Source: Deltaproteobacteria bacterium
Lineage (GTDB): Bacteria; CALINM01
Reading direction: 5' to 3'
DNA: 64,000 nucleotides
Assembly (NCBI GenBank): GCA_037442505.1
Contig: JBBIPZ010000001.1
Location: 121,144 to 185,143 of the forward strand
The notes beneath the pieces were generated by a model. The model worked only from the letters and a program-made list of their open reading frames with translations, searched no databases and had not been told where the DNA came from. This document shows positions 43,003 to 64,000 of this stretch, piece after piece (position 1 is the stretch's first letter; each line of letters begins with the position of its first letter). Made by a program: the position numbers and the translations under genes.

Positions 43003-45595
43003 ATTCCTCAATTATTTTGCGGAAAGAGGGCACCAAATTGTAAAAAGTTCAGGATTGGTTCCTCAAAATGACCCGACGCTACTTTTTACAAATGCCGGTA
43101 TGAACCAGTTTAAAGATATTTTTCTTGGAATAGAGAAAAGAGATTATAAAAGGGCTTGTAGCTCACAAAAATGTGTAAGGGCTGGCGGTAAACATAACGA
43201 CCTTGAGAATGTAGGTTATACTGCACGCCATCACACATTTTTTGAGATGTTAGGAAACTTTTCATTTGGCGATTATTTTAAAAAAGACGCTATTTTCTAT
43301 GGTTGGGATTTTTTAACAAGAGAGCTTAATCTTCCCAAGGAAAGACTCTGGGTAACAATATACAAAGATGATGAAGAAGCTTTTAAATTATGGCAGGAAG
43401 TTGCAGGCATATCAGCGGACAGAATCGTTAGATTGGGTGAAAAAGACAATTTTTGGTCGATGGGAGATGAAGGACCATGCGGACCCTGCTCTGAAATAAT
43501 AATAGATCAGGGTGAAGGTGTTGGATGTGGCAAACAGGATTGTGCAGTTGGATGTGATTGTGATAGATATTTAGAGTTGTGGAATCTCGTTTTTATGCAG
43601 TATAACAGAAAAAGTGACGGTACGTTGGAGCCATTGCCTAATCCGAGTATTGATACAGGGATGGGATTAGAACGCATTACATCTGTTATTCAGAAGGTAA
43701 GTTCTAACTTTGAGACTGACTTATTGTTTCCGTATATAGAGAAGATGGCTTCACTTGCGGGTGTAAAATATGGTGAAAATCACGAAACAGACGGTCATTT
43801 AAAAGTTATAGCGGATCACATAAGGGCTATGACGTTTTTGATATCGGACGGGGTTTTTCCATCAAATGAGGGACGTGGCTATGTTTTAAGAAGAATCATG
43901 CGAAGGGCGATAAGACATGCCAGGATGTTAGGTTTTTCAAAGCCGGTTTTATTTGAGCTTGCACCTCTTGTAGCCGATGTGATGGAAGATGCATATCCAG
44001 AGCTTAAAGATAACCTCGAACTCGTAAAAAAGGTAGTTCAAAACGAAGAAGAACGTTTTCTGGAGACATTAGACGGAGGGTTAAAGATACTTTTTGGCAA
44101 GCTTGATGAAGTGAGGAAAAATAATGCTAAAGTGTTTCCAGGAGACACCGCATTTATGCTGTATGATACATATGGTTTTCCTGTTGATTTGACACAGGAT
44201 ATATTGAGGGAACACAATATTTCTCTGGATTTGGCTGGCTTTGAATCACAAATGGAGCAGCAAAGAGAACGTGCACGAAAAAGCTGGAAAGGGGAGGGAG
44301 CAGGGATAGAAGAATTATATAAAAGACTATCACAGGAGATTGATGTTGAGTTTCTGGGATATCAAACAACAGTTTCGACCGAACATTTATTAAAAATAGT
44401 TTCTAACGGAATGTTGAAAGACGAACTTTTAGAAGGTGAAAAAGGAGAATTCATTTTCGAAAAAACACCATTTTACGGTGAGTCTGGCGGACAAGTAGGT
44501 GATATTGGCAAGATTATTGGTGATGATTTTTTGATTGAAGTTTCTGATACAAAAAAGATAAACAATTTGATTATTCATGTTGGTTATGTTAAAAAAGGAA
44601 AAGTAAAAACTGGCGTTTCTGCATGCCTTATTGTTGAAAATAGTCTCCGTGAAAATACCGCTTCTCATCATACGGCAACGCATCTTTTACAGGCTGCGCT
44701 CCAAAAGGTGTTGGGCAATCACGTTAAGCAGGCAGGCAGTCTTGTAACGCCGGAACGCTTGAGGTTTGACTTTACACATTTTGCAGCAATAACCGATGAT
44801 GAATTGAGTAAGATAGAGAGACTTATCAATGAATGGATAAGAGATAACAAAAAGGTTAGAATCTCTATACTGTCGTATGATGAGGCTGTGAAAAAGGGCG
44901 CGATGGCAATTTTTGGAGAGAAGTATGGAGATACCGTTAGAATGGTGGAAGTAGAAGAAGTTAGTAAAGAGCTTTGTGGCGGAACTCATCAGACAGAAAC
45001 AGGCAGACTTGGTCTTTTCAAAATCATTTCTGAAGAAAGTGTTGCTGCTGGAGTAAGGAGGATAGAGGCGGTTGCTGGTGAATCTGCCTACAACTGGGTA
45101 ACACAAATGTGGGATAAGCTACAAACAGTATCTTCAGTATTAAAAACATCACCTAAAGACGTCGAATTTAAGATAGAAAAGCTTGTTAAAAGAGAGAAGG
45201 AACTGGAAAAACAGATAGAATCTTTACAACATAAGATCTCTTCTTATCAGGCAAAGGAACAGATGGTTGTTAAAGAAATTAAAAATGGTAACCGTGCAAT
45301 CGCTACAAAGGTCTCCGTTTCGGACGTCAACCAGTTAAGAACAACAATGGACACAATTAAAGATAAAGAAAAGGATGCTGTAATCTTTTTAGCTTCTGCG
45401 ATAGAAGGAAAGGCAAACTATCTGGTTTTTGTGCCTGATAATATAACTCATCTGGATGCAGGAAAACTTTTAAAAGAGATTGTAGCACAGGTAAATGGCA
45501 GAGGAGGCGGAAAGAAAAATATGGCACAGGGTGGTTCTAATTCCGCTTCGGATATTGAAACAGCTATCAAAAAGTTTTTTTCTCTGGTGGAGTGA
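42977..45595 (+). CDS. alaS: Alanine--tRNA ligase
   Basis: Starts MKGREIRAKFLNYFAERGH. Editing-domain HxxxH/CxxxH motifs (HHTATH, CGGTH) and a C-terminal DHHA1 domain. The start at 42977 follows GAGGGTG and overlaps the recX end. Confidence 0.93.
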   Translation: MKGREIRAKFLNYFAERGHQIVKSSGLVPQNDPTLLFTNAGMNQFKDIFLGIEKRDYKRACSSQKCVRAGGKHNDLENVGYTARHHTFFEMLGNFSFGDYFKKDAIFYGWDFLTRELNLPKERLWVTIYKDDEEAFKLWQEVAGISADRIVRLGEKDNFWSMGDEGPCGPCSEIIIDQGEGVGCGKQDCAVGCDCDRYLELWNLVFMQYNRKSDGTLEPLPNPSIDTGMGLERITSVIQKVSSNFETDLLFPYIEKMASLAGVKYGENHETDGHLKVIADHIRAMTFLISDGVFPSNEGRGYVLRRIMRRAIRHARMLGFSKPVLFELAPLVADVMEDAYPELKDNLELVKKVVQNEEERFLETLDGGLKILFGKLDEVRKNNAKVFPGDTAFMLYDTYGFPVDLTQDILREHNISLDLAGFESQMEQQRERARKSWKGEGAGIEELYKRLSQEIDVEFLGYQTTVSTEHLLKIVSNGMLKDELLEGEKGEFIFEKTPFYGESGGQVGDIGKIIGDDFLIEVSDTKKINNLIIHVGYVKKGKVKTGVSACLIVENSLRENTASHHTATHLLQAALQKVLGNHVKQAGSLVTPERLRFDFTHFAAITDDELSKIERLINEWIRDNKKVRISILSYDEAVKKGAMAIFGEKYGDTVRMVEVEEVSKELCGGTHQTETGRLGLFKIISEESVAAGVRRIEAVAGESAYNWVTQMWDKLQTVSSVLKTSPKDVEFKIEKLVKREKELEKQIESLQHKISSYQAKEQMVVKEIKNGNRAIATKVSVSDVNQLRTTMDTIKDKEKDAVIFLASAIEGKANYLVFVPDNITHLDAGKLLKEIVAQVNGRGGGKKNMAQGGSNSASDIETAIKKFFSLVE

Positions 45596-46605: not shown

Positions 46606-47034
46606 ATGTTTCAGGCAAAAAAACAACAAGTCATTGAAGAGGTGAAAATACAGGGCAACGTCGAAGTGCTAACATTTTTAGGTGTAGGTACAGAGTTTAA
46701 AGGAAAAGTTGTTTTTCAGGGCACATTAAGGGTAGATGGTACGGTAGAAGGCGAGATTGATGGCAGTGATACGCTCATTCTCGGAGAGACAGGCTCTATT
46801 ACTGGTGTTTGCAAGGTAGGAAAAGCAATTTTCTCTGGCAAGATTAGGGGTGAAGTGTATGCCAGTGAAAAGCTTATACTAAAGAAAAACTCTGACTTCA
46901 ATGGCAAAATAGTGACGCCGTCGCTGGTAGTTGAAGAGGGTGCAAACTTTAACGGTAGTTGTAAAATGGGTAGAGAGTTTCCCAAAGAAAGGGAGTATAT
47001 CGAAGAGCACGAAGCTTCTGTTGTGAAACTATAA
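46606..47034 (+). CDS. Bactofilin-family cytoskeletal protein
   Basis: Repetitive beta-helical pattern (GKVVFQGTLRVDGTVEGEIDGSDTLILGETGSITG...). ~140 aa. Confidence 0.8.
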   Translation: MFQAKKQQVIEEVKIQGNVEVLTFLGVGTEFKGKVVFQGTLRVDGTVEGEIDGSDTLILGETGSITGVCKVGKAIFSGKIRGEVYASEKLILKKNSDFNGKIVTPSLVVEEGANFNGSCKMGREFPKEREYIEEHEASVVKL

Positions 47035-47742: not shown

Positions 47743-48306
47743 TTATCCTTTTGACAGTATGGTTTTTAATGCGTAAACAAGCCGTTTTTCTAAATCTTCA
47801 ATATTTGCGGAGGCACCTTTATTCAAGTAAAATGATGGTTCAGAATGAGAGATAAATTTTTTGAGCTCATCATCAGCCTGTTTTACTGAGAAAAACAGAA
47901 TGGGTACCTTTTTGATTTCTAATGCCTTTTCTATGGCACGCATCGCAATTGCAGTGCTTACTCCAGAAATAAAGGGCATTCGTATATCAAGTATAACAAG
48001 ACTTACATCTCTTTTTTCAATAATAGACTTTAGATAGTAGGTTATAGCTTCTTCGCCATTATTCAATGGTATGAATCTGTTACAAAGTCCGTTTTTTTCG
48101 ACGATATCTTTAACCAGCTCACGCATAAACGCAGAGTCATCTGCGTGAATTATTGTAACTTCATCTAATTTTGCTGTTTTAATGTGATTTTTTTTGCTTA
48201 AAGGCAGCCCACAGTACAAACAACATATTTCTTCTTTGCCGTCTTTTATGACTGTGTAGGTAAGTACATCTTCGTTACAGTGCTGGCAAAAAAGTTTTTT
48301 TTCCAT
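47743..48306 (-). CDS. Zinc-ribbon + receiver-domain response regulator (no output domain)
   Basis: N-terminal CQHCN...CCLYCG zinc ribbon, then a REC domain (IIHADDS...LDIRMP...K). Confidence 0.7.
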   Translation of the reverse strand: MEKKLFCQHCNEDVLTYTVIKDGKEEICCLYCGLPLSKKNHIKTAKLDEVTIIHADDSAFMRELVKDIVEKNGLCNRFIPLNNGEEAITYYLKSIIEKRDVSLVILDIRMPFISGVSTAIAMRAIEKALEIKKVPILFFSVKQADDELKKFISHSEPSFYLNKGASANIEDLEKRLVYALKTILSKG

Positions 48307-52203: not shown

Positions 52204-52230
52204 GAGGCGCCATTTAAAGACGCCTCTTTT
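52204..52230 (+). terminator. Rho-independent terminator after galE (GAGGCG-11 nt loop-CGCCTC + TTTT)
   Basis: GC-rich 6-bp stem followed by a T-run. It lies in the gap between convergent genes. Confidence 0.45.
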
Positions 52231-52236
52231 AAAAAT

Positions 52237-52419
52237 TTACTTTTTAGGTTGTGGTGCACCAACTGGACAGACTTCTGCGCAGGTGCCACAGTCATCACAT
52301 TTACTTTCATCAATAACATACTTTGGATCACCTTCACTAATTGCACCGTTAGGACACTCATCCTTACAGCTTCCACACATGACACAGTCGTCATTAATAA
52401 AATATGCCATAACACTCAC
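52237..52419 (-). CDS. fdx: 2x[4Fe-4S] ferredoxin
   Basis: 60 aa. CVMCGSCKDECP and CDDCGTCAEVCP. Confidence 0.9.
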   Translation of the reverse strand: MSVMAYFINDDCVMCGSCKDECPNGAISEGDPKYVIDESKCDDCGTCAEVCPVGAPQPKK

Positions 52420-52447
52420 CTCCTTGTATAAATTTTATTGTAGATTT

Positions 52448-52555
52448 TTAATCGACTTTAACAAATTTAGAGCTGTCAGCACCACATACTGGACAAACAT
52501 CAGGTGGTTCTGGGCCTTCGTGAATATATCCGCAAACAGTGCATTGCCACTTCAT
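52448..52555 (-). CDS. Mini-rubredoxin (rubrerythrin-C-terminal-type Rd domain), 35 aa, missed by ORF track size cutoff
   Basis: Manual translation of the minus strand gives MKWQCTVCGYIHEGPEPPDVCPVCGADSSKFVKVD. There is a perfect RBS GGAGGAG 6-7 nt upstream. CxxCGY...CPxCG is the rubredoxin-type Fe(Cys)4 knuckle pair. Confidence 0.65.
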   Translation of the reverse strand: MKWQCTVCGYIHEGPEPPDVCPVCGADSSKFVKVD

Positions 52556-52582
52556 AGCATCTCCTCCTTTTTCAATGTATTA

Positions 52583-52918
52583 TTATCCCCATTTATTTTT
52601 TTGTATGTGTGATTGAATCTCGGCAATCGCAATCTTCTTAAGTAACTCTGAACATTCACTAACTCGCTGATAAAAGTTTAAACATGCTGGATCTAAATTA
52701 TCTTTTATCCCTTCGTTAGCAAGAGTTTTTAGCTCGTCAAACGCTTTGACAGATTTCATCAATAAATCATTGCTCTTTCTTGCCCTGACTATTAAACCAA
52801 CCACATTTTCAGGCAACAACTCAAACTGTTCAGCATGAGCACCGCACTTAGGGCAGGAATCCGGTGCATAATCACCTTCATGTATGTAGAAACATGCTTT
52901 ACAACGAAAAAACTTCAT
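52583..52918 (-). CDS. Rubredoxin-like (rubrerythrin-type CxxC...CxxCG...FELL) N-terminal domain fused to ~80-aa helical domain of unknown function
   Basis: MKFFRCKACFYIHEGDYAPDSCPKCGAHAEQFELL. It is paralogous to the adjacent mini-Rd. The C-terminal part lacks diiron ExxH pairs. Confidence 0.65.
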   Translation of the reverse strand: MKFFRCKACFYIHEGDYAPDSCPKCGAHAEQFELLPENVVGLIVRARKSNDLLMKSVKAFDELKTLANEGIKDNLDPACLNFYQRVSECSELLKKIAIAEIQSHIQKNKWG

Positions 52919-52927
52919 AACCTTTCA

Positions 52928-53302
52928 TTATATTTTCAATAATTCTTTTACTGTCGCTATTAGTTGAGTGGTTTGCACCGGTTTTGTTAAATAGGCGTTT
53001 GCCCCCAATGTCAAACCACGTTTTTTATCTTCTTCTGCACCTTCAGTTGTAACGATAATTATAGGCATGCCCTTGTATTTAGCATCCTGTCTCACCAGAC
53101 TGACAAGTTTCAACCCGTCCATTATCGGCATATTGATATCGGCTATCATCAGATCAAATTTGTTGTTTGAGAGCTTTTTTAGGCCATCTACACCATCTGA
53201 GGCTTCGGTTACAGAAACATCTTTCAATCTTTTCAAGGCAAACACAATAAGCTGTCTCATTGTCGGAGAGTCTTCTACAACTAATATGTTTATACTTGCC
53301 AT
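52928..53302 (-). CDS. cheY: CheY-like single-domain response regulator
   Basis: ILVVEDS, ADINMP and KP motifs. 124 aa. Confidence 0.88.
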   Translation of the reverse strand: MASINILVVEDSPTMRQLIVFALKRLKDVSVTEASDGVDGLKKLSNNKFDLMIADINMPIMDGLKLVSLVRQDAKYKGMPIIIVTTEGAEEDKKRGLTLGANAYLTKPVQTTQLIATVKELLKI

Positions 53303-53318
53303 TGTATCCTGTCCTCCG

Positions 53319-54125
53319 TTATTTGGTGAGAAGGTCTATAAAGCCCTGTATAGTTGATAACTTTCTTTCCGATTCACTATAAAGTTTTGCACTAAATATT
53401 GCCGTAGCAGCATGACCCGCAAGCAGTGTAAATAATTCATAATCGAGGTCAGTAAATCTTTCTTTTTGTAGCAACAGTTTGTAAATGGCAATTACACCGA
53501 TGGTTCGTTCCTTAATCTTTAAGGGGATGCAGGCAATTGGTAGCTCCTGTTCAAACTGCTCAAACATCGGAATAATCTCGCTAAAGTAGTTTTCCCCACT
53601 TTTTGCTGCCTTCCCAATGATACCTTTACCCAGCTTGGCATTTGTAACTTCAGAAATGTCCAAACCCTCTGTTGCGATTGGAGTGAGTTCGTTTGTCTTT
53701 TCGTCCAGGATAAAAAGCACAAAAATCTCTGCACCAATTAGATTAATTACAATCTCCATTATTATCTGGACAACTTCCTTAAAATTTAAGGTTGAGTGTA
53801 GTTGATAACTTGCTATATACAAATTGGCAAGGTTGTTGTTTTCGTTTTCTACCTCGACATATTTTTCCGCAAAATTCTTATTTTCGTTTTCGACTTCTTT
53901 GAAACGCTCCAAAAGCTCTTGTTTTTCAGCTTCTAAAAGAGCGATCTTTTTGTGACATTCTGCATGTGCATCAATTGATACGCCTCTATTTTTGAAAGAT
54001 TTTAGCTCCTCTTCTAAACGGGCAATCTGAAACCTGAGGCGCTCATTGTCGTGCAAAAGCTCTTTTACAAACTCTGCGGTCTTTTTAAAAGTGTTAAAAA
54101 ACTCTTCTGCCCGCTCTTTTGACAT
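53319..54125 (-). CDS. Coiled-coil + GAF domain protein
   Basis: N-terminal heptad-rich region of ~100 aa. The C-terminal domain has a GAF-like pattern (GAEIFVLFILDE...GIIGKAAKSG...PL-I--R-IGVIAIY). Confidence 0.6.
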   Translation of the reverse strand: MSKERAEEFFNTFKKTAEFVKELLHDNERLRFQIARLEEELKSFKNRGVSIDAHAECHKKIALLEAEKQELLERFKEVENENKNFAEKYVEVENENNNLANLYIASYQLHSTLNFKEVVQIIMEIVINLIGAEIFVLFILDEKTNELTPIATEGLDISEVTNAKLGKGIIGKAAKSGENYFSEIIPMFEQFEQELPIACIPLKIKERTIGVIAIYKLLLQKERFTDLDYELFTLLAGHAATAIFSAKLYSESERKLSTIQGFIDLLTK

Positions 54126-54167
54126 TTTTAAACCTCACAATAATGATAAAGTCATATTAAAAAAAAT

Positions 54168-55202
54168 TCAATCATAAACAGAAAGTTTTTTTGAAATAGC
54201 ACTTGGTATATTCCACAGTGGCAAGACTAAATCTGCTATTTTAGCTGTAACTATCTCTTTCGGCATACCGTAGATTATGGCAGATTCTACAGATTCTGCC
54301 CAAATTTCTGCACCCGCATTTTTTAATGCTATTGCCCCCATTTTGCCGTCTGACCCCATTCCTGTAAGAACTATTGCAGTAGTTCTTTTTGCAAAAGGAA
54401 CGAGAGAGTTAAACAAATGGTTAACCGAAGGGACGTAAATATCTTCGTCTTTCTTTTTATCTATCTTAATAAAAAGTGATGAATTTTTTTGTGTAACGGT
54501 CATATGATGTCCGCCGGGGCTAATATAAACGGACCCTGCTTTTATAAGTTCGCCATCTTTCCCTTCCGAAACATCAAGGTTTGTTATTCTGTTAAGTCTT
54601 TCGGCAAACACCTTTGTAAAACCTTCTGGCATATGTTGCGCAATCAATATGGCTGTATTAGGTAGTGACTTTATCTCTAAAAGTATCTTTTGAAGAGCCT
54701 GAGGCCCCCCCGTGGACGAACCAATTGCGATAATGCTAAGTGTCTCTTCGTGTTGAGGTGGTGGAGCAATAGTTTTCAGTTCTGTTTTCTTCTTAGGTGT
54801 TGTCGCCAACAATGCCGCTCTAATCTTGAAAATCAGGTCTTTCTTTATATCCAGAAGCTTTAATGATGCCTGTTGTGTTGGTTTGGCAACTAAATCTACA
54901 GCTCCTAACTCTAAAGCCTTAAATACGTTATCAGAGGATGCCATACTTGAAACTACAATTACAGGTGTAGGTTGTTCTGACATCAAGAAACGAAGAAAAG
55001 AAAAACCGTCCATTTCAGGCATTTCGAGGTCCAGTGTAATTAAATCAGGCTTAAGTTGAATCGCCTTTTTTAAACCATCTACTCCATTGGTTGCCGTATC
55101 AACAACTTGAAAATCAGGTTCGCTTTCGATAAGCTCCTTTAAGACCTTGCGTGTAAAAGGTGAATCATCTATAACAAGGATTCGTTTCATTTTTTTTCTC
55201 AT
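54168..55202 (-). CDS. cheB: Chemotaxis response regulator protein-glutamate methylesterase
   Basis: N-terminal REC (ILVIDDSPF, LDLEMP). C-terminal CheB methylesterase (GSSTGGPQAL, HMPEGFT, GMGSDG). Confidence 0.92.
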   Translation of the reverse strand: MRKKMKRILVIDDSPFTRKVLKELIESEPDFQVVDTATNGVDGLKKAIQLKPDLITLDLEMPEMDGFSFLRFLMSEQPTPVIVVSSMASSDNVFKALELGAVDLVAKPTQQASLKLLDIKKDLIFKIRAALLATTPKKKTELKTIAPPPQHEETLSIIAIGSSTGGPQALQKILLEIKSLPNTAILIAQHMPEGFTKVFAERLNRITNLDVSEGKDGELIKAGSVYISPGGHHMTVTQKNSSLFIKIDKKKDEDIYVPSVNHLFNSLVPFAKRTTAIVLTGMGSDGKMGAIALKNAGAEIWAESVESAIIYGMPKEIVTAKIADLVLPLWNIPSAISKKLSVYD

Positions 55203-55208
55203 TCTTAC

Positions 55209-56057
55209 TCAGGGCTTTTGATAAACCATATCATTTTTAAAATGCCTTATTGTGAAAGAGGTTGATATGTTAATAAGAGATTCTGCATGTCCTAAAAGCA
55301 AAAATCCACCTCTTTCCAACTTTTCATAAAAATTTTCAACAACGGCTTTTCTTGAAGCTCCATCAAAATATATTAGCACATTCCTGCAAAAAATAATATC
55401 CATCGTTGGTAAAAACCCTATCTTGTTTTTGTCAAGAAGATTTAGATTTCCAAAACTAACAAGTTCTCTTATTGGTGCCTTAACTTTTGCTCCAGCTGTA
55501 CCCAAATCATCAAAAAACTTTCTTTTTTGTTCTTCTGTGGTAGAACGAAAAGAGTTCTGATAATAAACGGCTTCTCTTGCTATTTTTATACACCGCTGAC
55601 TGATATCGCTGCCAAAAATGCTGACCTTATAGTTGTCAAAGATATCTTTTTTGCTGTAAAGGAGCATTGCTATTGTGTAAGGTTCTTCGCCAGTGGAGCA
55701 GCCAGCTGACCAGATTCTTATAACATCACCTTTATTTTTATTTTTCACAACCTCGTAAATGATCTCATCTGTGAATGCCTTTAACTGATAATCTTCACGA
55801 AAAAAGTAGGTTTCATTTGTGGTGATGGTATCGTAAATAAAAACAAACTCTTCCTCTTTTTTTTTGTCATACTTTAAGAAAAAGATGTATTCTCTAAAGC
55901 TTTGAAACTTAAGTTCCTTTAACCTTGTGCCCAAACGTTTTTCAAGAATATACTTAGAACTGTCGTCAAAAAATATACCACACTTATCTTTTATAAGATC
56001 TCTTAGTGTTCGGAACTCCTCGTCAGAAAGCTTTATTCCAGAAGTCATTTCCCACAT
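55209..56057 (-). CDS. cheR: Chemotaxis protein methyltransferase
   Basis: CheR N-terminal helical domain plus SAM-MTase (IWSAGCSTGEEPYT, GSDIS). Confidence 0.9.
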   Translation of the reverse strand: MWEMTSGIKLSDEEFRTLRDLIKDKCGIFFDDSSKYILEKRLGTRLKELKFQSFREYIFFLKYDKKKEEEFVFIYDTITTNETYFFREDYQLKAFTDEIIYEVVKNKNKGDVIRIWSAGCSTGEEPYTIAMLLYSKKDIFDNYKVSIFGSDISQRCIKIAREAVYYQNSFRSTTEEQKRKFFDDLGTAGAKVKAPIRELVSFGNLNLLDKNKIGFLPTMDIIFCRNVLIYFDGASRKAVVENFYEKLERGGFLLLGHAESLINISTSFTIRHFKNDMVYQKP

Positions 56058-56060
56058 ATA

Positions 56061-57959
56061 TCAGTCTCCGGTTGAGATACTTTCTTGAGAAATGTGGACG
56101 GGTAAATAATCTTTTCCTTTTTCTTTTTCGATAAGTGAAGTTAATTTTAGTGAAACATCTTCCATTCCTGCTGTTCTGAAAAAGTTTGTCAATTCAATAA
56201 AGATATCTTTATCATCAAACTCAAAAGCTTTTTTTATAAAAAGTTCAGAGGAAAGAGGCAAGCCTTTTTCCAGAAGTGTCAATAAACCGAAAAAGGAGAA
56301 TGGTGTTACATCTTCAAATATTTTTTCTTGATGTTTTGCCAATATTTCCGGGGCAAGCTTATAGATGCTCTCTATCACTGTCTTTTTTATCTGTAGATCT
56401 TCACTGGCAAGAAAGTTTACTAAAGTTTCGACACAATCTTTGTTTCCAATATTCCCCAACGCCTCTATCACTCTAAGTTGTACATTTTCATTTTCATCTG
56501 TAAGATAAAAAAGTAGTTCATTTGTTAAATCTTGTACTTTTCTCTCTCCAATGATTTGAACAGCCTTTTCCCGTACATCAGAAAATGGGCTCTTCAATGC
56601 CTTGTTTAGATAATTTTTGTTTATAGAATCGGTCTTATGAAGCAGTTCAAGGATGGAAAGCAGTTTATCCTTTTCGCCGTGTAAGAAAATTTCATCGGCG
56701 ATATAGTATGGGAAATTATCTTTGTTTATCAACAAAGACAGAGAATTTACAGCTTGTTCTCTCACATCAGGATAAGGATCGTTCATTAGCTTAAACAGAC
56801 AGTTAATAGCAGCTTCTCCTCCCAATCTACCTAGAGAAAATGCAATAGCCTGTCTTGTGTGCCCAAATTGAGCCTGACATAACTCGATAAGCTTTGTCTT
56901 TGCATCATAAGCTCCAAAAACACCACACAGATATGCAAGATATGCCTGTTTTTTGTCGTGATATTTGTCCAAACTGGATACAATCAAAGAGATATTGCTG
57001 AATGGCGCATAAGAAGAGAAGCTTCCAAAAAGCTCCAATGCCTCATCATCAGCCTTTTCAATAAGTGATTTAAAAAACTTTTCATCTTCAGTTATAAAAG
57101 CAAGCAGAGCAAAAACTTTCGATTCGTTGGTAGAAGGTTCAAAAAGTTTCTCGTAAATCTCGCAATATGTTATGCAATCTTTCACTGACTTTTTAAGTTC
57201 TGAAAGTTTATCAGGATTTTGTTCAAAAAGTTCATATAATTTTCGTGCAGCATTTATTTTTAAGTAATTTGAATTTTCAGAAAATGATTTTTTTAGCAGT
57301 TCAACATTATGAGGTGGTTTTATGAGTGGAAGCAAATCAAGGATTGGCTTTCTTAGCTGTGAAACATCAAAAAGAGGTATGATCTTTTCTGCATCAAAAG
57401 GCACACCAATCTGGGCAAGCGCTTCAATAATAACAAATGAAAGCCATTGTTTTTCAGGATCTAACAGGTTCATTAAAGACGTAACAGCATTTTCACAACC
57501 AATTTTGCCTATATTTTCACATGCAGCAATAACAACATTTTCTGACGTGTCGTTGAGCGCATCTATAAGAAAACTACATACGTCTTTACAGCGAATATCG
57601 CCCATAATATCAAGGATAAACTTTCTTACGTCTTCGTCAGCAGCAGAAAAATGTTTTTTTAAATAAGGTATTGCAGGTATGCCAATTAAAGAAAGGGCTT
57701 CTTGTGATGCATTCCTTAACCCTGCGTTTTCTTCAGATGAAAGACCTAAAATAAGTAGTTTAATTATAGCTTCATCTGGATACCTTGTGGCAAGCTCAAC
57801 AGCCTCTTTTCTTACCCGCCAGCTTTTGTCACCAAGGCATTCAAAAAAAAGTTCAAGATTGCTATCGGTTTGAGTAAAATTTTCTTTTAAAGAGATTATT
57901 TGTGCACGTTTTTTTTCTTCCCTTTCGAGATCTTCCATTTTATCTTCCTTGTTTTTCAA
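56061..57959 (-). CDS. HEAT/PBS-lyase repeat protein embedded in che operon
   Basis: 632 aa, all alpha-helical, with recurring ...R--A--ALG-IG... HEAT-like repeats (VRKEAVELA, VREQAVNSLS, VREKAVQIIG, VQLRVIEALGNIG). Confidence 0.7.
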   Translation of the reverse strand: MKNKEDKMEDLEREEKKRAQIISLKENFTQTDSNLELFFECLGDKSWRVRKEAVELATRYPDEAIIKLLILGLSSEENAGLRNASQEALSLIGIPAIPYLKKHFSAADEDVRKFILDIMGDIRCKDVCSFLIDALNDTSENVVIAACENIGKIGCENAVTSLMNLLDPEKQWLSFVIIEALAQIGVPFDAEKIIPLFDVSQLRKPILDLLPLIKPPHNVELLKKSFSENSNYLKINAARKLYELFEQNPDKLSELKKSVKDCITYCEIYEKLFEPSTNESKVFALLAFITEDEKFFKSLIEKADDEALELFGSFSSYAPFSNISLIVSSLDKYHDKKQAYLAYLCGVFGAYDAKTKLIELCQAQFGHTRQAIAFSLGRLGGEAAINCLFKLMNDPYPDVREQAVNSLSLLINKDNFPYYIADEIFLHGEKDKLLSILELLHKTDSINKNYLNKALKSPFSDVREKAVQIIGERKVQDLTNELLFYLTDENENVQLRVIEALGNIGNKDCVETLVNFLASEDLQIKKTVIESIYKLAPEILAKHQEKIFEDVTPFSFFGLLTLLEKGLPLSSELFIKKAFEFDDKDIFIELTNFFRTAGMEDVSLKLTSLIEKEKGKDYLPVHISQESISTGD

Positions 57960-58839
57960 GAAGCTCTATCATAGATTCGTAAATAAGGTCTTTTGCCTTG
58001 TTTGCCACTTCAGGGATTTTTTTAGTCAAATGAACGATACCATCGTCTATGTCAATTTTTAGCTGTTGATAGAAGTTATTTTTATTTAAAAACTTAATCT
58101 TTTCCTGGTTATAAAGTGCAATATCAGAGACGATTAATCGTGCCAATTTTTTTGCACGTTCTGGAACGTCTTTAATCGAGTTTATATAATCGTTCTCGTG
58201 TTGCTTTATTTTGTCTCGTTCAACATCTATATTTTTTTCGTCAAGCAGGATATCTCTGTTGTCTTTCAGTGCTTCTTTAGCAATTACAGTTGTTTCGACT
58301 GTTTTTTCTACCTGTGTAGAAATGTTTGTGCCTTTCAGGTGTTTAAGTAGTTTTGGCAAAAGATCATCAGGAATATGATGTTTTTCTATGTAATCATCTG
58401 CACCGTAAAGATTTTGTGGTTTTCTTTTATAACGAGTTCTGTCATAAATTGATGCTACAAGAATTATCTTAGTGTTTTTAAGCTCAGGATCGTTTTTAAT
58501 CTTTTCACATAGCTCAAAACCAAATATGCCCGGCAACGCCACATCAATAATGACAGCCGCAGGTTTTGTCACTTTTACAAGTTTTAGTGCCGCATGTCCA
58601 TCGTAGGCATAATCTATCGAAAAATCTGCACGTTCTAAAATTTTTCTTATTACGTTCACGACGCGAAAATCGTCATGTGCTACGACAATTTTATTAGAGT
58701 TGTTAGAATTTTCAGTAGCGTTTAATGAAACAACAAAGCTTGAAAAACATTTTTTACACGTAACGGATAATTTTTGCCTGTTTTGGGGGAGTTTGTTCAA
58801 GGCGTATCGGGCTTTACATTGGGGGCATGTGATAATCAA
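57940..58839 (-). CDS. MJ0042-type zinc-ribbon + receiver domain + C-terminal helical domain response regulator
   Basis: MIITCPQCKARY...VTCKKCFSSF zinc ribbon. REC domain (VVAHDDF...IIDVALP...K). ~120-aa C-terminal domain. Confidence 0.7.
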   Translation of the reverse strand: MIITCPQCKARYALNKLPQNRQKLSVTCKKCFSSFVVSLNATENSNNSNKIVVAHDDFRVVNVIRKILERADFSIDYAYDGHAALKLVKVTKPAAVIIDVALPGIFGFELCEKIKNDPELKNTKIILVASIYDRTRYKRKPQNLYGADDYIEKHHIPDDLLPKLLKHLKGTNISTQVEKTVETTVIAKEALKDNRDILLDEKNIDVERDKIKQHENDYINSIKDVPERAKKLARLIVSDIALYNQEKIKFLNKNNFYQQLKIDIDDGIVHLTKKIPEVANKAKDLIYESMIELLEKQGR

Positions 58840-59303
58840 ATTATGCCCTCCTTAAGTCTTTTATGGTGAGGCAAGACATGTTCTATGAAAAGCCTTTCGA
58901 TATCCAAAATCATTATTACCTTACCGTCCAGATAAAAACCGCCAGAAAAATAATTGTGTTGAATATTAGAGACAAGACCTGGAGTGGGAAGAATTTTATC
59001 TTCATCTATTCTCAATATATCTTCTATATCATCACTTTTTAGCCCGACAATTTTTTTCTTTACTGCAACTATCAATATCTTGTTTTTTTTCTGTTCTTTC
59101 TGAATTTCATTTTCCATGCCTAAAAGACGCCTGGTATCAATTAATGGCAAAAAAAAGCCTCTTAAATGAATCAGTCCATCAAAGAAATAAGGAGCCTGAG
59201 GCAGTTTAGTTGGTTGGGAGTAAGGTATAATTTCCCTTGCGTATTTTAACTCTACGGCAAATAACTGTTCATTTAGTTTCAGTAATAAAAACTTTTTTTC
59301 CAT
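58836..59303 (-). CDS. cheW: Chemotaxis coupling protein CheW
   Basis: 155 aa. LFAVELKYAREIIPY-QPTKLPQAPYFFDGLIHLRGFFLPLIDTRRLLG is the CheW pattern. Confidence 0.88.
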   Translation of the reverse strand: MEKKFLLLKLNEQLFAVELKYAREIIPYSQPTKLPQAPYFFDGLIHLRGFFLPLIDTRRLLGMENEIQKEQKKNKILIVAVKKKIVGLKSDDIEDILRIDEDKILPTPGLVSNIQHNYFSGGFYLDGKVIMILDIERLFIEHVLPHHKRLKEGII

Positions 59304-59308
59304 AATAT

Positions 59309-59947
59309 TTAAAAATTCAATATTTTTTCTAAATCGAGCATTCTTATCATTCTATCATTAAATAAGGCAACACCTTTTATGAACTCTTGTTTTGCACCTG
59401 ATAAATTCATAGGTGTAGGAATAATATCGTTTGTAGAAATTTTCGCGATTTGGGTTATCGCATCAACAATTAAACTTATTTTCTCGTTACAGCATTCGAT
59501 AATTACAATTTTAGAATTAATTGAATCAATTAATGCTGGTATGTCAAGTAGCTTTTTTATGTCAAATATGGGCATCACTTCTCCACGAATAGAAATGATA
59601 CCTAATATAAAATCCAATGTTTTAGGAACTTCTGTCAGTGGTCTGTTTTTAATAATTTCTTTTACAAAGCCAACATCTATGGCGTATTCTTCTTCCCCTA
59701 ATTTAAAACACAAAAACTCTTTTAACTCTCTGGTGTCCTTTACGGAGTATTTCCTGTATAGATTCTCCTCATCTATAAACTCGATGTGATCATCAATTTG
59801 TTCTTTATATTCAGATATTTCTTGCTTAGGAGGCACAGGCATTACTTGTGTCGTTTCTTGTGCAAAACTTTCCTGTTTTTCTTCAATAAGGTTAGCAGGT
59901 TGTTCCTTTTTCTTTTTACTTTTCTTTCTAATCTCAGCAATATTCAT
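59309..59947 (-). CDS. CheW-domain protein with ~60-aa N-terminal extension
   Basis: FLCFKLGEEEYAIDVGFVKEIIKNRPLTEVPKTLDFILGIISIRGEVMPIFDIKKLL. Confidence 0.8.
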   Translation of the reverse strand: MNIAEIRKKSKKKKEQPANLIEEKQESFAQETTQVMPVPPKQEISEYKEQIDDHIEFIDEENLYRKYSVKDTRELKEFLCFKLGEEEYAIDVGFVKEIIKNRPLTEVPKTLDFILGIISIRGEVMPIFDIKKLLDIPALIDSINSKIVIIECCNEKISLIVDAITQIAKISTNDIIPTPMNLSGAKQEFIKGVALFNDRMIRMLDLEKILNF

Positions 59948-59950
59948 AAT

Positions 59951-60754
59951 TTAGTTCCAATTAAGGTATTCTGCAGCTGCTTCTTCAATAATCCCTGTAT
60001 CAATATACTTTTTTTCGTGAGCAAATGCAATAAGTAAAGCGTTCTGTGCTATATGGTTTATCACCCTCGGAATTCCTTTTGAGTGTTTATAAATAAGCTT
60101 TGAGCTTTCAATGTTAAAAGGATTTTGTCTGGCTCCAGCTATATTAAGCCTATGTTCAATGTATTTTACTGTCTCTTCTTCTGTTAAAGGGCCTAAGTGG
60201 TAAAAAAAACCAACCCTCTGCTTAAACGCCTCCCAGTTTCCGCGTTTCATTTTTTCTTTTAGCTCGGGTTGCCCTAAAAGTATGATAGATATAAGATTTT
60301 CATCATCTAACTGAAAATTCGTAATAATTCTTATTTCTTCAAATATGTCTTTGGTCGTTATTAGTTGAGCTTCATCAATGATTAATATGGGCGTTTTGCC
60401 ATTTTCGTAAAATTTGAAAAGTATTTCATAAATCTGTTCCATCAGGTCTTTTTTAAAGTATTTAGGTTCTTTACCGGAAAAACCTTTAACGATGTTACGT
60501 AAAAACTGCGTTGGTGTGCCCCTCGGGTTTATCATAACATAGGGTACAAAACTGTCATCAAGTAAATCTAAAAGTTTTCTCGAGAGTGTAGTCTTTCCGC
60601 AGCCGATATCACCTGTAACAACAATAATTTCTTTCTCTTCGGCGCCATACTGCATTCTGGCAAGCGCTTCTTTATGTTCTTTGCTGAGATAAATAAACGT
60701 AGGATCAGGTGTTTTTGAGAATGGTTTTTGTTTTAAACCAAAAAAGTTAAGCAT
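59951..60754 (-). CDS. ExeA/GspA/MshM-family AAA+ ATPase (AAA_22) embedded in che operon
   Basis: FFGLKQKPFSKTPDPTFIYLSKEHKEAL-RMQYG is the ExeA N-motif. Walker A GDIGCGKTT. Walker B LIIDEAQ. Confidence 0.75.
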   Translation of the reverse strand: MLNFFGLKQKPFSKTPDPTFIYLSKEHKEALARMQYGAEEKEIIVVTGDIGCGKTTLSRKLLDLLDDSFVPYVMINPRGTPTQFLRNIVKGFSGKEPKYFKKDLMEQIYEILFKFYENGKTPILIIDEAQLITTKDIFEEIRIITNFQLDDENLISIILLGQPELKEKMKRGNWEAFKQRVGFFYHLGPLTEEETVKYIEHRLNIAGARQNPFNIESSKLIYKHSKGIPRVINHIAQNALLIAFAHEKKYIDTGIIEEAAAEYLNWN

Positions 60755-60774
60755 TCTTTTAAATCCTCAGATGT

Positions 60775-62742
60775 TTACATTTTTGCACCAATCTCATCAA
60801 GTAAACCGGAAGGATCCAGCACCAGTATAATTTTGCCATCCCCAATCTGAGTAGCACCAGCAATACCACGTGTTTTGATAAATTTACCCATAGATTTTAT
60901 AACTATGTCACTGTATCCAATTATCTCATCCACCACTATACCCGCCTTTTTTTCGCCAACCTTTAAAATAACTAAAAAACGAAATGTTTCAGGCATCTCG
61001 CCAAACTCGAAAATTTTTTCTAAATATGATACTGGTAAAGCAGAATTTCTAAAATTGATTACATCTTCTCCAGAAATCTTAAGTAAATGTCCCTTGTTAA
61101 TTTCAACCACTTCTTCTACAGAAGCTATAGGGATTGCAAACAACTTCCCTGTTGTCTTAATGATTATTGACTGAATTATTATCAATGTGAGTGGAAGTGT
61201 AAGGATAAAAGTAGTTCCAACATCTTTCTCTGATTTAACATCAACTATGCCTCTAAGTCTTGTTAAATTGCTTTTTACTACATCTAAACCAACCCCCCTG
61301 CCAGAAATTTCTGTGGCAACATCTTTTTCGCTAAAACCGGGGGTAAATATTGTCTGAATAAGGTAATCATCAGAAACATCCTGATCGGAGGTAATTTTTC
61401 CAGTTTTAATCAGTTTTTCTCTAATTTTAACCAAATCGATACCTTTACCATCGTCTTTTACCTCAATATAAACATTGTTACCTTTTTGATATGCAGAAAG
61501 CTCTATGTGCCCAACAGTTGGCTTCCCTTTTTGTTTACGTATTTCAGGCTCCTCAATCCCGTGATCGATTGCATTACGAATAATATGCATCAAAGGATCT
61601 GCAAGCTCCTCTATTAAATATTTATCAAGTTCGGTTTCTCCGCCTTTAACTACAATGGACAACTCTTTTTTTAACTCATGGGCAATCTTTTTTACGTTTC
61701 TTTCTAATTTTTCGAACAGTTGATTAAGTGGCACCATTCTCACAGCCATCACCGATTCCTGTAACTCGTTAATCTTTTTCCCAAGCGCATTTACAACTTT
61801 AGAAAGAGTAAGATTTAACTCATTGTTGTGTAAATGCATCTTTACATTTTCTATAAGCTGCATAACCTCCGTTTTTTGAGTTACAAGTTCACCGACGATA
61901 TTCATTAAATTGTCCAGCTTTGATATGTCCACCCTTATGGTATTGCTGATACTTTTTAGCTGTCCAGTGTCTATGTCCCTGCCGGTAATGTCTTTATCTT
62001 CATTAGTGATAAACCTTTCTTCGATTAGTTTTTCTATTTCATAAATATATTTTCCCTTTATGGGGATCTCATCTGGAGATTTTTCCGTTGCAAAGATTAA
62101 AGAAAATATGATGTTTCCGGGCTGGTCAGATGGTTTAGGCAGTGTGCTTATAAGCTCTCCAGAAGTTTTTAAGATAGAAGTGATTTCGTTCAATCGTTCA
62201 TCAAACTCTTCTAAGGAAAAGACAAACTGAATAGAATAAATATTTCTTCCTTTTTTTAGATTATCAGACAACCTGTGTTCTTCATACTCTGTAAGTACGT
62301 TTTTAAGTGTTGCAAGGACTGAAGAGGACCTTTCCTCAGTTTGAGAATTTTTTGTAAATACTTGACTTATTTTTTCGACAAATGGGTCTATCGGGATATC
62401 ATCCTTACTTCCATCTGCAATCTTTTTTATATTAGAAACAATTAAATCTTTGCCTTCTAAAAGTATGTCAAAGACCTGATTATCAACGACAAGTTTCCCG
62501 AGCCTGATTTTATCCAAAAAACTTTCAAGCTGATGGGAAAGATTGGAAAGATTGGAAAAACCAAACATGCCTGAAATACCTTTAATGGTATGAAAGTCGC
62601 GAAAAATCGCATTTATTAGCTCTGGGGACTCTTTCCCCTCTGTAGAGAGTTCTTCAAAAGAAAACAGATTCTTTTCAATGTTTTCAACAAGCTCTTCGAC
62701 TTCAGCTATAAACTCTTTTAACGCTTTGTTATTTTCTGGCAT
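60775..62742 (-). CDS. cheA: Chemotaxis histidine kinase CheA
   Basis: HPt (FHTIKGISGMFGF), dimerisation domain, HATPase (DDGKGID, GRGVGLDVV) and C-terminal CheW-like domain. Confidence 0.93.
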   Translation of the reverse strand: MPENNKALKEFIAEVEELVENIEKNLFSFEELSTEGKESPELINAIFRDFHTIKGISGMFGFSNLSNLSHQLESFLDKIRLGKLVVDNQVFDILLEGKDLIVSNIKKIADGSKDDIPIDPFVEKISQVFTKNSQTEERSSSVLATLKNVLTEYEEHRLSDNLKKGRNIYSIQFVFSLEEFDERLNEITSILKTSGELISTLPKPSDQPGNIIFSLIFATEKSPDEIPIKGKYIYEIEKLIEERFITNEDKDITGRDIDTGQLKSISNTIRVDISKLDNLMNIVGELVTQKTEVMQLIENVKMHLHNNELNLTLSKVVNALGKKINELQESVMAVRMVPLNQLFEKLERNVKKIAHELKKELSIVVKGGETELDKYLIEELADPLMHIIRNAIDHGIEEPEIRKQKGKPTVGHIELSAYQKGNNVYIEVKDDGKGIDLVKIREKLIKTGKITSDQDVSDDYLIQTIFTPGFSEKDVATEISGRGVGLDVVKSNLTRLRGIVDVKSEKDVGTTFILTLPLTLIIIQSIIIKTTGKLFAIPIASVEEVVEINKGHLLKISGEDVINFRNSALPVSYLEKIFEFGEMPETFRFLVILKVGEKKAGIVVDEIIGYSDIVIKSMGKFIKTRGIAGATQIGDGKIILVLDPSGLLDEIGAKM

Positions 62743-62744
62743 AG

Positions 62745-63122
62745 TTACAGTCCTAATAATTTTTTGACCTGTTCTTTTAACATTTCAGCGGTAAAAGGCT
62801 TTTTTAAATACGAACTTGCCCCCATAGACATAGCACGCTTTAGATCCTCTTCTTTTGTCTCCGTGGATATCATTAGTACAGGAATATTTTTGTAAAGTTC
62901 TGATTTTTTAACAAAACTTAAAAGTTCAAGCCCGTTAATATCCGGCATATTTATATCAGATATAATGAGAGATAACTCTCCTCTTGGCAGTTCTCTTAAT
63001 GCCTCAAATCCTGTCTTCGCCTCGAAAAATGTAAAATTGCCCAGTTCTTCTAAACTTGAGATGATAAAAGCCCTCATTGCGCTTGAATCATCTACAATCA
63101 TAACCTTTTTGAGTTCTTCCAT
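62745..63122 (-). CDS. cheY: CheY response regulator
   Basis: VMIVDDS, SDINMP and KP motifs. 125 aa. Confidence 0.9.
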   Translation of the reverse strand: MEELKKVMIVDDSSAMRAFIISSLEELGNFTFFEAKTGFEALRELPRGELSLIISDINMPDINGLELLSFVKKSELYKNIPVLMISTETKEEDLKRAMSMGASSYLKKPFTAEMLKEQVKKLLGL

Positions 63123-63135
63123 TTTAAAGACCTCT

Positions 63136-64000
63136 TTATTTTTTCCCGATTAACAGTTTTTCCATAGCCAAACCTGCCTGTGTGAAAAATATTTCCAGTG
63201 CATCTGTGTCTTGAATGTTTTTTTTGTTAGGCAAGTTATCTCCATAGAAAAAAACCAGGGGTTTGTTATTGGACGTTATAACATCGAGAAAGATTTCTGT
63301 AGGTTTTTCCCCGCCCAGGCATTGATAAATAGTATCTAAAACTTTATCCTCGGGTGGATATCCTTTGAACGGAATACTGTACTTTATCACTTCTGAAATT
63401 TTACCTTCTATAGGCAAGGTTAAACCTTTCACCGTTTTAAAAGGTTCCTTGATAAAAGGTTCTAATCCAAACTGTCCCAGACCAAACAGTTTGGATTGTT
63501 TTATAGCAAAAACAACAGCCCTCGGCATAATCTCACTTGCCAATCTAAGTATCATTAATATTATTTCATTCCCTGTCTCTGCGTTAGAAAGCTCAGCAAC
63601 CATAGATTTAAGCAGCTTAAGTCCGGGTGTAGTTGCGATATTAGAGCCACTTTCGGTGATGCCAAATTCTTCTTTTAACTCCTTCTCCCACACAAACGGC
63701 GCAGATGCGTTTTTTGGGTTCTTTTTATTTATTATATCATAAAAATTTTGTTCAAGTGTTTGAATAAAAAGTTTTACATCCTGTTCAATGTTATCCCTGG
63801 TAAGTTTACTTCTTTTAGGTTTTTTAATTAATGTTGCGTTCCACTGCTTAAGTTCTTCTTCTGCATCAGGGATGTGATAATCACAGCAAACAAAGATAGG
63901 GATATCTCTGCCTTTTGGAACGAGGTTTATAAGTTCTAATCCTCCTAAGATTCCTTCTCCATTTTCTTTTTCAGCGATCAAAGATGTAACAATTATAGGA
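63136..64000 (-). CDS. Response-regulator-like protein (REC domain running off window edge) with ~200-aa C-terminal domain of unknown function; 5' partial
   Basis: There is no in-frame stop between 63981 and the window end. The visible N-terminal residues (GGLELINLVPKGRDIPIFV...LIKKP) match REC helix3-beta4-beta5 with the conserved Lys. Confidence 0.5.
   Translation of the reverse strand, partial: PIIVTSLIAEKENGEGILGGLELINLVPKGRDIPIFVCCDYHIPDAEEELKQWNATLIKKPKRSKLTRDNIEQDVKLFIQTLEQNFYDIINKKNPKNASAPFVWEKELKEEFGITESGSNIATTPGLKLLKSMVAELSNAETGNEIILMILRLASEIMPRAVVFAIKQSKLFGLGQFGLEPFIKEPFKTVKGLTLPIEGKISEVIKYSIPFKGYPPEDKVLDTIYQCLGGEKPTEIFLDVITSNNKPLVFFYGDNLPNKKNIQDTDALEIFFTQAGLAMEKLLIGKK

Follow-up and report, generated by a model that had tools for sequence, protein, structure and literature searches.

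An Esn-Type Che-Like Gene Cluster Followed by a Lineage-Restricted Tail of Putative Electron-Carrier Genes

The window analyzed here is a 64-kb stretch of contig JBBIPZ010000001.1, from an uncultured bacterium labeled as a member of the Deltaproteobacteria. Between position 52237 and its end at 64000 lies a chemosensory gene array of the Che type. According to the open reading frame (ORF) listing, the translations, and Pfam scans, it comprises 15 ORFs, all on the minus strand, from REC-x, encoding a receiver (REC) protein, to fdx, encoding a ferredoxin. We favor, with a probability of about 0.6, the interpretation that this operon-like array has two layers: an Esn-type Che-like core, and a lineage-specific cassette of three electron-carrier genes (RdX, mini-Rd, and fdx) that would be an autonomous add-on. 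Judged by gene content and order, the core belongs to the β-group, or Esn-type, clusters, which are already catalogued and widespread; only the lineage-restricted Rd/Rd/Fdx tail is new. These clusters rank among the Che-like systems that are most widely distributed and most poorly understood, and in Geobacter they are genetically tied to electrode colonization.

The Conserved Che-like Core

Using an alignment of the GAF protein as an anchor, we collected 80 genome loci with 10-kb flanks and mapped the 15 window proteins onto them by phmmer. The loci span Desulfuromonadales, Nitrospirota, and other groups, and include the named genera Geomonas, Geomobilimonas, Geotalea, Citrifermentans, and Geothermobacter. 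The following order recurs across them: REC-x, CheY, CheA, an AAA_22 ATPase, CheW, an optional CheY, CheW, a Zn-ribbon-REC protein (ZnREC), a HEAT-repeat protein, CheR, CheB, the GAF protein, and CheY. Among the 59 loci having a complete upstream flank, CheB, CheR, the HEAT protein, and the terminal CheY were each found in all 59, the last always behind the GAF gene. Of these 59 loci, 54 have at least two CheW genes, 44 have CheA and the ATPase, and 40 have ZnREC, which was not detected in the Nitrospirota-type loci. The loci apparently devoid of CheA and the ATPase are mostly of the Nitrospirota type, because the insertion of a methyl-accepting chemotaxis protein (MCP) gene pushes both beyond the 10-kb flank. 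The additional cheY between the two cheW genes, found in 31 of the 59 loci (most Desulfuromonadales), is absent from the window. CheA orthologs in related loci score 400–870 bits, and orthologs of REC-x occupy the equivalent position in L001, L038, L040, L044, L055, L069, and L071.

This arrangement corresponds to cluster 5 of Geobacter sulfurreducens. The β-group che clusters are kept across the delta-proteobacteria and encode CheA, CheW, CheB, and CheR with no mcp gene (Tran et al. 2008, PMC2577667; PMC8235581). The CheW protein GSU2220 (EsnB), the ATPase GSU2221, and the CheA protein GSU2222 (EsnC) are required for growth on electrodes and not on Fe(III) oxide, the ATPase gene having also scored in the Geobacter transposon-sequencing screen; their partners are EsnA, a GAF-MCP encoded elsewhere, and EsnD, a diguanylate cyclase (Chan et al. 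2017, PMC5585712). The next two locus tags belong to a CheY (GSU2223) and to a response regulator (GSU2224) whose disruption leads to oxygen-tolerant biofilms (PMC8242959). The window cluster shows both the conserved order and the lack of mcp that define the β-group, and its ATPase gene lies between cheA and cheW1, matching the placement of GSU2221. By inference, the Geobacter counterpart is GSU2212–GSU2224, the 13 genes of the recurring order fitting the 13 locus tags; the GAF gene would then be GSU2213 and the HEAT gene GSU2216. Orthology to the cluster of G. sulfurreducens PCA is argued from the locus-tag order and from the adjacent gene for a 27-heme cytochrome; it was shown directly for other Geobacteraceae.

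The gene list and order given by the first-pass annotation were reproduced for all 15 genes, and its description of a Che-type operon is supported by gene content and domains; the Rd, Fer4, GAF, AAA_22, and HEAT_PBS domains that it named were all recovered in the scans. It had, in addition, presented REC-x, the ATPase, ZnREC, and the HEAT and GAF proteins as non-canonical accessory genes. As these recur in the same order in the 80 loci, comparative evidence identifies them as core genes, conserved in a cluster type already known, and not as decorations, which guards against an over-reading of the locus. The packing was also somewhat looser than annotated: the intergenic distances extend from a 4-nt overlap to 42 nt, the largest separating cheB from the GAF gene, and not from 0 to 30 nt.

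REC-x (63136 to beyond 64000) has its 5′ end outside the window and encodes a divergent receiver followed by an unknown domain of about 200 aa; it is position-equivalent to GSU2224. The 287 visible residues match no Pfam or NCBIfam model, and the longer ortholog in L001 gives a weak Response_reg match (E = 0.0011). It is followed by cheY1 (62745–63122), encoding a single-domain receiver (Response_reg, 2.1e-25) whose best NCBIfam match is CheY, and by cheA (60775–62742), with Hpt, H-kinase_dim, HATPase_c, and CheW-like P5 domains. The ExeA-like ATPase (59951–60754; AAA_22, 3.8e-26) is position-equivalent to GSU2221. CheW1 (59309–59947; CheW, 5.8e-33), position-equivalent to GSU2220/EsnB, carries a charged N-terminal extension of about 75 aa, and CheW2 (58836–59303) matches the CheW model at 2.6e-30. 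ZnREC (57940–58839) combines an MJ0042-type zinc ribbon (Zn_ribbon_4, 2.1e-8), a receiver (Response_reg, 1.6e-16), and a conserved C-terminal region. The 632-aa HEAT/PBS-lyase-like protein (56061–57959, with an alternative start at ATG 57938) consists of NblB/CpcE-like repeats (HEAT_2, 1.6e-44; HEAT_PBS). Then come the methyltransferase CheR (55209–56057; CheR, 2.6e-55; CheR_N, 4.5e-12), the methylesterase CheB (54168–55202), with REC and CheB_methylest domains, the coiled-coil GAF protein (53319–54125; GAF_3, 1.9e-14), and CheY2 (52928–53302; Response_reg, 3e-29), encoded by the final gene of the conserved core.

Two of these proteins deserve closer description. The ATPase aligns over residues 3–261 with positions 4–264 of the 269 in TIGR03015, the model of the XrtA/PEP-CTERM-associated ATPase, at 1.9e-69 and 234 bits, under the 324.5-bit cut-off of that family; by sequence, it is a paralog of this ATPase. 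The GAF protein has thousands of homologs. The best 120 are all full-length and 60–100% identical (from Desulfuromonadales, "Deltaproteobacteria," Chrysiogenetes, and others), and with 60–69% identity between phyla it is the most conserved accessory protein of the cluster type. In its AlphaFold2 (AF2) model, helices 2–47 and 51–111 precede the GAF domain, and a fold search placed this domain nearest to cAMP/cGMP-binding GAFs and to the GAF domain of an MCP (PDB 3oov). As modeled, it thus resembles cyclic-nucleotide GAFs and not heme or redox GAFs, and neither the ATPase nor the GAF protein points to redox sensing.

The Rd/Rd/Fdx Tail

The first two tail proteins are predicted to carry rubrerythrin-type Fe(Cys)4 knuckles, being neither rubredoxins proper nor rubrerythrins. 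RdX (52583–52918, 111 aa) combines a four-cysteine knuckle (residues 1–34) with a two-helix hairpin (37–107), and mini-Rd (52448–52555, 35 aa) is a stand-alone knuckle. Both exceed the 26.5-bit gathering cut-off of RUBY_RBDX (PF21349), mini-Rd with 64.6 bits (5.2e-18) and RdX with 42.2 bits (5.4e-11). The CxxC-x12-CxxC pattern and the matching fold are those of a rubrerythrin-type domain with a predicted metal site: the knuckle superposes on rubrerythrin 1b71/1ryt with a root-mean-square deviation of 0.7–1.3 Å at 43–47% identity, and mini-Rd matches rubrerythrin residues 154–183 without gaps. In true rubredoxins the two cysteine pairs are about 29 residues apart instead of 12; the PF00301 score is 18.6 bits against a threshold of 23, and alignment to rubredoxins requires a 17-residue gap. 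Nor is RdX a whole rubrerythrin. Its AF2 model (pLDDT 91) shows a confident hairpin of two helices (37–72 and 77–107) and no four-helix diiron bundle, the family alignment contains a single invariant E100-x3-H104 and not two E...ExxH motifs, and the NCBIfam rubrerythrin match spans the knuckle only. The hairpin has no significant PDB neighbor and no Pfam model. We considered that it might be half of a ferritin or rubrerythrin, and rejected this: the Foldseek hits, to encapsulated ferritin, were of low probability (~0.2, E > 1), and the hairpin lacks the ExxH motif.

Fdx (52237–52410, 57 aa) has two Fer4 stretches, with cysteines C9-C12-C15-C19P and C40-C43-C46-C50P; its length (about 55 aa is typical) and its two CxxCxxCxxxCP motifs are those of clostridial-type 2×[4Fe-4S] ferredoxins, and it matches over its full length ferredoxins of 55–57 aa (9g03_E, 1clf, 1fdn, and 1dur). 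From sequence, it is a generic member of this class. Its true start is most likely ATG 52410, which is preceded at 6 nt by AGGAGGTGA and agrees with orthologs called as 57 aa. The distance between mini-Rd and fdx is therefore 37 nt, so that of the tail gaps initially given as 9, 27, and 28 nt the first two stand and the third does not.

The tail is restricted to the lineage of the host. AlaS, encoded in the window (42950–45595, plus strand), is 65–98% identical within a small clade of metagenome-assembled genomes (MAGs) labeled "bacterium" or "Proteobacteria bacterium" and at most 56% identical to all named taxa, including Thermodesulfobacteriota, Deferribacter, and Nitrospinae, which marks the host as a member of a deep-branching uncultured lineage. 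The window has a GC content of about 36%. Elsewhere in it (10691–12843, plus strand), a 4Fe-4S protein and an aldehyde:ferredoxin oxidoreductase gene adjoin a histidine-biosynthesis operon; by their annotation, these genes mark a ferredoxin-dependent anaerobic metabolism.

Every lineage member examined carries the tail behind cheY2 (the window, L081, L082/L083, L084, L001, and L093/L094), with gaps of 3–43 nt in the tail region; L081 and L082 derive from samples JGI 3300010938 and ERR15113708, respectively. In the whole collection, 70 loci extend at least 800 nt beyond cheY2 and are informative on this point; in 69 of them no RdX, mini-Rd, or Fdx homolog follows cheY2, L001 being the sole positive. 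The linkage to the che genes announced by the first-pass annotation is thus kept in all lineage genomes examined and missing outside. In other loci, cheY2 is followed by infA and leuS (Desulfuromonadales, by inspection of translations), by a cytochrome gene and then leuS (some Geobacteraceae), or by unrelated or opposite-strand genes. Given this variety outside the lineage, the conserved unit ends at cheY2. In Desulfuromonadales, a cysteine-rich 850-aa protein encoded after cheY2 was considered as a redox enzyme; its translation identified it as leucyl-tRNA synthetase, with infA preceding. In five Geobacteraceae loci (L018:11209–13350, L037, L053, L060, and L065), a gene for a cytochrome c with 27 CxxCH motifs lies on the same strand, 9–98 nt past the terminal cheY, in the slot held by the Rd/Rd/Fdx tail in the lineage of the window. 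We take this slot to be the position of GSU2210.

Downstream of the tail, the flanks vary. Epimerase, peptidase-like, and SurA-like genes follow in the window, L081, and L082/L083, and DUF169 and ArsP genes in L093; the L001 flank contains nothing matching the flank genes of the window. Within the lineage, identity to the window proteins is 91–96% for Fdx, 86–100% for mini-Rd, 85–98% for CheY2, 62–86% for CheA, and 50–72% for RdX. As synonymous divergence (dS) is saturated, only nonsynonymous divergence (dN) was compared; for RdX it is 0.19–0.41, comparable to that of the HEAT protein, which suggests purifying selection with loose constraint. In L001, the RdX gene (L001:11209–11542) lacks one nucleotide after about codon 19, so that the reading frame is lost between the two CxxC pairs. 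The closely related RdX of L093 (P0141) is intact, so the frameshift reflects either a mistake in the assembly or a pseudogene at the level of the strain.

RdX is not an invention of che clusters. A word-indexed search had returned five clusters of the lineage and suggested this idea, which was dropped when an exhaustive hidden Markov model search gave 925 matches, about 50–60 of the 150 listed being full-length. The proteins of this widespread family (P0141–P0272), which has no name, are about 110 aa long and share conserved motifs: NLDPxC, AExxxH, and GKW(G). Five distant relatives have neighborhoods without che genes, containing, respectively, NIF3; PNPOx and a rubredoxin; a ZIP transporter and Fe-S ATPases; Sua5; and pyruvate:ferredoxin oxidoreductase. 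The titles and opening lines of abstracts listed by a literature search revealed no precedent for a rubredoxin in a che operon or for an Rd/Rd/Fdx tail on this cluster.

The tail is probably cotranscribed with the che genes, as its spacing suggests. It is tightly packed behind cheY2, as first annotated, and no terminator-like site or stable structure was found within the 9-, 27-, and 37-nt gaps separating cheY2, RdX, mini-Rd, and fdx. A GC-rich hairpin (52204–52226) lies 14 nt past the fdx stop, with a T-run on its plus-strand side. It has a predicted stability of −15.2 kcal/mol (z = −3.9; equaled by 0 of 200 shuffles) and an equivalent past fdx in L001; it probably terminates both the che-tail operon and the convergent epimerase gene.

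Alternatively, the three genes might be mere neighbors, an independently transcribed housekeeping or oxidative-stress unit of electron carriers that is linked to the cluster by shared ancestry only. We consider this unlikely. It would agree with the absence of the cassette from 69 of the 70 loci, with the oxidative-stress-looking neighborhood of the RdX homolog in L087, which lies beside the PNPOx and rubredoxin genes, and with the typically very high expression of small ferredoxins. Each of the three genes also has its own strong ribosome-binding site, as already noted in the first-pass annotation, with the sequence AGGAGG. In addition, a sigma-70-like sequence, TTGTTA-16-TACAAT, precedes fdx. 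However, with 8 such sites against 6.5 ± 2.7 in shuffled sequences, this sequence is within chance expectation, and it is not conserved in relatives; we therefore did not retain it as an internal promoter. RdX starts 9 nt past the cheY2 stop (3–43 nt in relatives), so that any promoter of its own would lie inside cheY2, and the cassette stayed with the cluster while its other flank was replaced.

A second alternative gives the tail more weight: Rd, Rd, and Fdx would be dedicated redox inputs or cofactors, and the pathway would report redox state or oxidants, as an energy- or aerotaxis-like system or in a redox-controlled biofilm. Several observations speak for it: the linkage is strict in the lineage despite the changing downstream flank, the 3–43-nt gaps of all relatives contain no internal terminator, and mini-Rd and Fdx are strongly constrained (86–100% identity vs. 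62–86% for CheA). The 27-heme cytochrome holds the equivalent 3′ position in some Geobacteraceae, the G. sulfurreducens cluster is needed on electrodes (PMC5585712), and the oxygen-tolerant biofilms noted above result from an insertion in GSU2224 (PMC8242959). We nevertheless judge this alternative improbable. The trio is missing from nearly all other loci with the same cluster, the RdX family occurs in non-che contexts, and Fdx is generic. RdX diverges at the pace of the least constrained che protein, and one MAG has a frameshift in it; RdX, mini-Rd, and Fdx carry no domain known to contact Che proteins. The nearest folds of the GAF domain are cyclic-nucleotide-binding, and known redox taxis uses cofactors borne by receptors (FAD-PAS, heme), whereas the window encodes no receptor. 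The redox theme that the first-pass annotation had drawn from the GAF protein, the ATPase, the atypical REC proteins, and the HEAT protein is unsupported, because these are invariant or near-invariant in a cluster type that occurs in hundreds of genomes devoid of Rd/Fdx genes. We treat redox or oxidant sensing by the pathway as a hypothesis drawn from adjacency in one lineage.

For the interpretation that we favor, a core with an autonomous tail, several points are unfavorable. All close RdX orthologs found sit behind this che cluster, and the tail was kept although its downstream flank changed at least twice, which exceeds the expectation from shared synteny and could reflect functional coupling. 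The case for cotranscription is made from spacing and missing terminators only, and the promoter-like site ahead of fdx, though within chance and unconserved, points the other way. The output proposed below is extrapolated from Geobacter, for a genome seen only as 64 kb.

A direct part of the cassette in signaling therefore seems to us improbable rather than negligible, and we keep it in consideration because of its strict linkage in the lineage and of the parallel Geobacter cytochrome. A more speculative and quite doubtful version is that Esn-type pathways read the electron-carrier pool, carriers having been recruited independently to the 3′ slot, RdX/mini-Rd/Fdx here and the 27-heme cytochrome in some Geobacteraceae; RdX might then be a redox-switched adaptor binding CheY2 or the coiled-coil GAF protein. 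Were the tail coupled in function, it would give an initial clue to the input signal of Esn-type systems, with redox state as a candidate. If not, it would be a mere accretion of small electron carriers onto an operon in an uncultured anaerobe.

Receptors, Signal Flow, and Output

The window encodes no receptor of any kind. A tblastn search with the Tsr signaling domain and with three MCPs that are encoded inside the cluster in related loci gave no hit in the window better than E = 0.5. Pfam and NCBIfam scans of the other window ORFs, with the 42.6–52.2 kb region covered by orthology to the annotated L081, revealed no flagellar gene and no cheZ, cheC, or cheD, so the absence of all these genes stated in the first-pass annotation holds. 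In Nitrospirota, and also in some other lineages, the cluster itself contains one or two MCP genes (L072:3733–5478, L051:2636–5512, L054:1373–3868, L010:2858–4975, and L035:1010–4912). In Nitrospirota-type loci the MCP gene sits between the two cheW genes, and the MCP of L051 has an additional C-terminal domain of about 280 aa.

Based on general Che biochemistry and Geobacter genetics, the input would come from one or several unlinked MCPs and reach CheA by way of CheW1 and CheW2, the ATPase being a conserved partner. Phosphate would then pass from CheA to CheY1, CheY2, ZnREC, REC-x, and CheB. Receptor adaptation would fall to CheR and CheB, and the HEAT-repeat and coiled-coil GAF proteins would likely act as downstream or modulatory partners. 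The output would most likely be non-flagellar, in the control of surface colonization or of the extracellular matrix. The cassette, having joined the 3′ end of the cluster in one deep-branching lineage, would probably be read through from the che promoter, which would tie its expression to the che operon. Fdx and the rubredoxin-type centers would pass electrons, much as the redox chains of oxidative stress or of general anaerobic metabolism do, and would be neither a defining nor a necessary part of the signaling machinery.

A classical flagellar chemotaxis operon, with its MCP and flagellar genes beyond the window, appears very unlikely. The set of CheA, CheW, CheY, CheR, and CheB is complete, and the view is limited to 64 kb of the genome. 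Yet within these 64 kb there is neither the flagellar linkage nor the CheZ, CheC, CheD, CheX, or CheV and cognate MCPs expected of flagellar (F-class) systems. The orthologous Geobacter cluster is away from flagellar genes and is classed apart from E. coli-like clusters (PMC2577667), and Geobacter esn mutants have electrode-colonization defects, with no motility phenotype reported (PMC5585712). Of the two options left by the first-pass annotation, an energy- or aerotaxis-like pathway and a non-flagellar output, the latter is the more likely by analogy with the Geobacter orthologs, which act in electrode colonization and matrix control, and by the lack of flagellar genes in the window. In Geobacter, the tie of the β-group cluster to the extracellular matrix comes from preliminary knockout data cited as unpublished observations (PMC2577667); among holders of the cluster, G. 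sulfurreducens is the only one in which a role in electrode colonization or matrix regulation is known. The kinship of the ATPase with TIGR03015 would fit a connection to the control of exopolysaccharide or matrix.

Other genes of the window may bear on surface behavior. A PilT-family type IV pilus ATPase (41402–42562, plus strand), a bactofilin (46606–47034, plus strand), and a divergent stand-alone REC protein (47743–48306, minus strand) are encoded within 11 kb of the cluster and are possible components of such behavior. A second small che-like module (15122–17043, plus strand) comprises a 137-aa ORF without a Pfam match, a CheW-like protein (15526–15939; PF01584, 5.6e-8), and a protein of 367 aa in which a REC domain at the N terminus is followed by about 250 aa of unknown sequence.

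Comparison with Known Systems

The closest system is the esnB/esnC cluster 5 of G. sulfurreducens. It shares gene content and order with the window cluster from REC-x to the terminal CheY, including the ATPase, ZnREC, HEAT, and GAF genes, and neither contains an mcp gene. The window differs from the Geobacter loci by the lack of the additional cheY between the cheW genes and by the RdX/mini-Rd/Fdx genes after the last cheY, where Geobacter has the 27-heme cytochrome gene and/or leuS; its host belongs to an unrelated deep-branching lineage.

Che8 of Myxococcus xanthus (MXAN_4751–4759) encodes CheA, CheR, CheB, two CheW, and two CheY proteins; two further genes separate cheW from cheR, and there is no MCP gene (PMC3945109). 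M. xanthus is listed among the holders of β-group clusters by Tran et al. (PMC2577667). The resemblance of Che8 to the window cluster is drawn from published gene tables, and the developmental output in M. xanthus is specific to myxobacteria. In the Che7 system, a HEAT-repeat protein, Cpc7, encoded between the receptor module and cheR, is reportedly a partner of CheY7, as Darnell et al. are said to have described in 2014.

Receptors for energy or redox taxis carry the cofactor themselves, as do Aer with its FAD-PAS domain and the heme or hemerythrin MCPs such as DcrA and DcrH of Desulfovibrio. With these the window would share the concept of a redox-reporting Che pathway. It encodes no receptor, however, the cluster proteins have no PAS, heme-binding, or hemerythrin domain, and the candidate redox proteins are free-standing, without a signaling domain. 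Because both a receptor and a cofactor-bearing sensor domain are missing from the encoded proteins, the cluster is not classified as an Aer-like energy-taxis system.

For the individual proteins, likeness to known families is mostly one of domain and not of context. RdX and mini-Rd share the knuckle with rubrerythrin and reverse rubrerythrin, but RdX has no four-helix diiron domain and mini-Rd is the knuckle alone. Fdx has the length and motifs of the clostridial ferredoxins cited above and differs by its placement at the tail of a che operon. Similarly, the ExeA/GspA-like ATPase aligns over its full length with the XrtA/PEP-CTERM ATPase (TIGR03015), and is encoded in a che cluster instead of an exosortase/exopolysaccharide locus.

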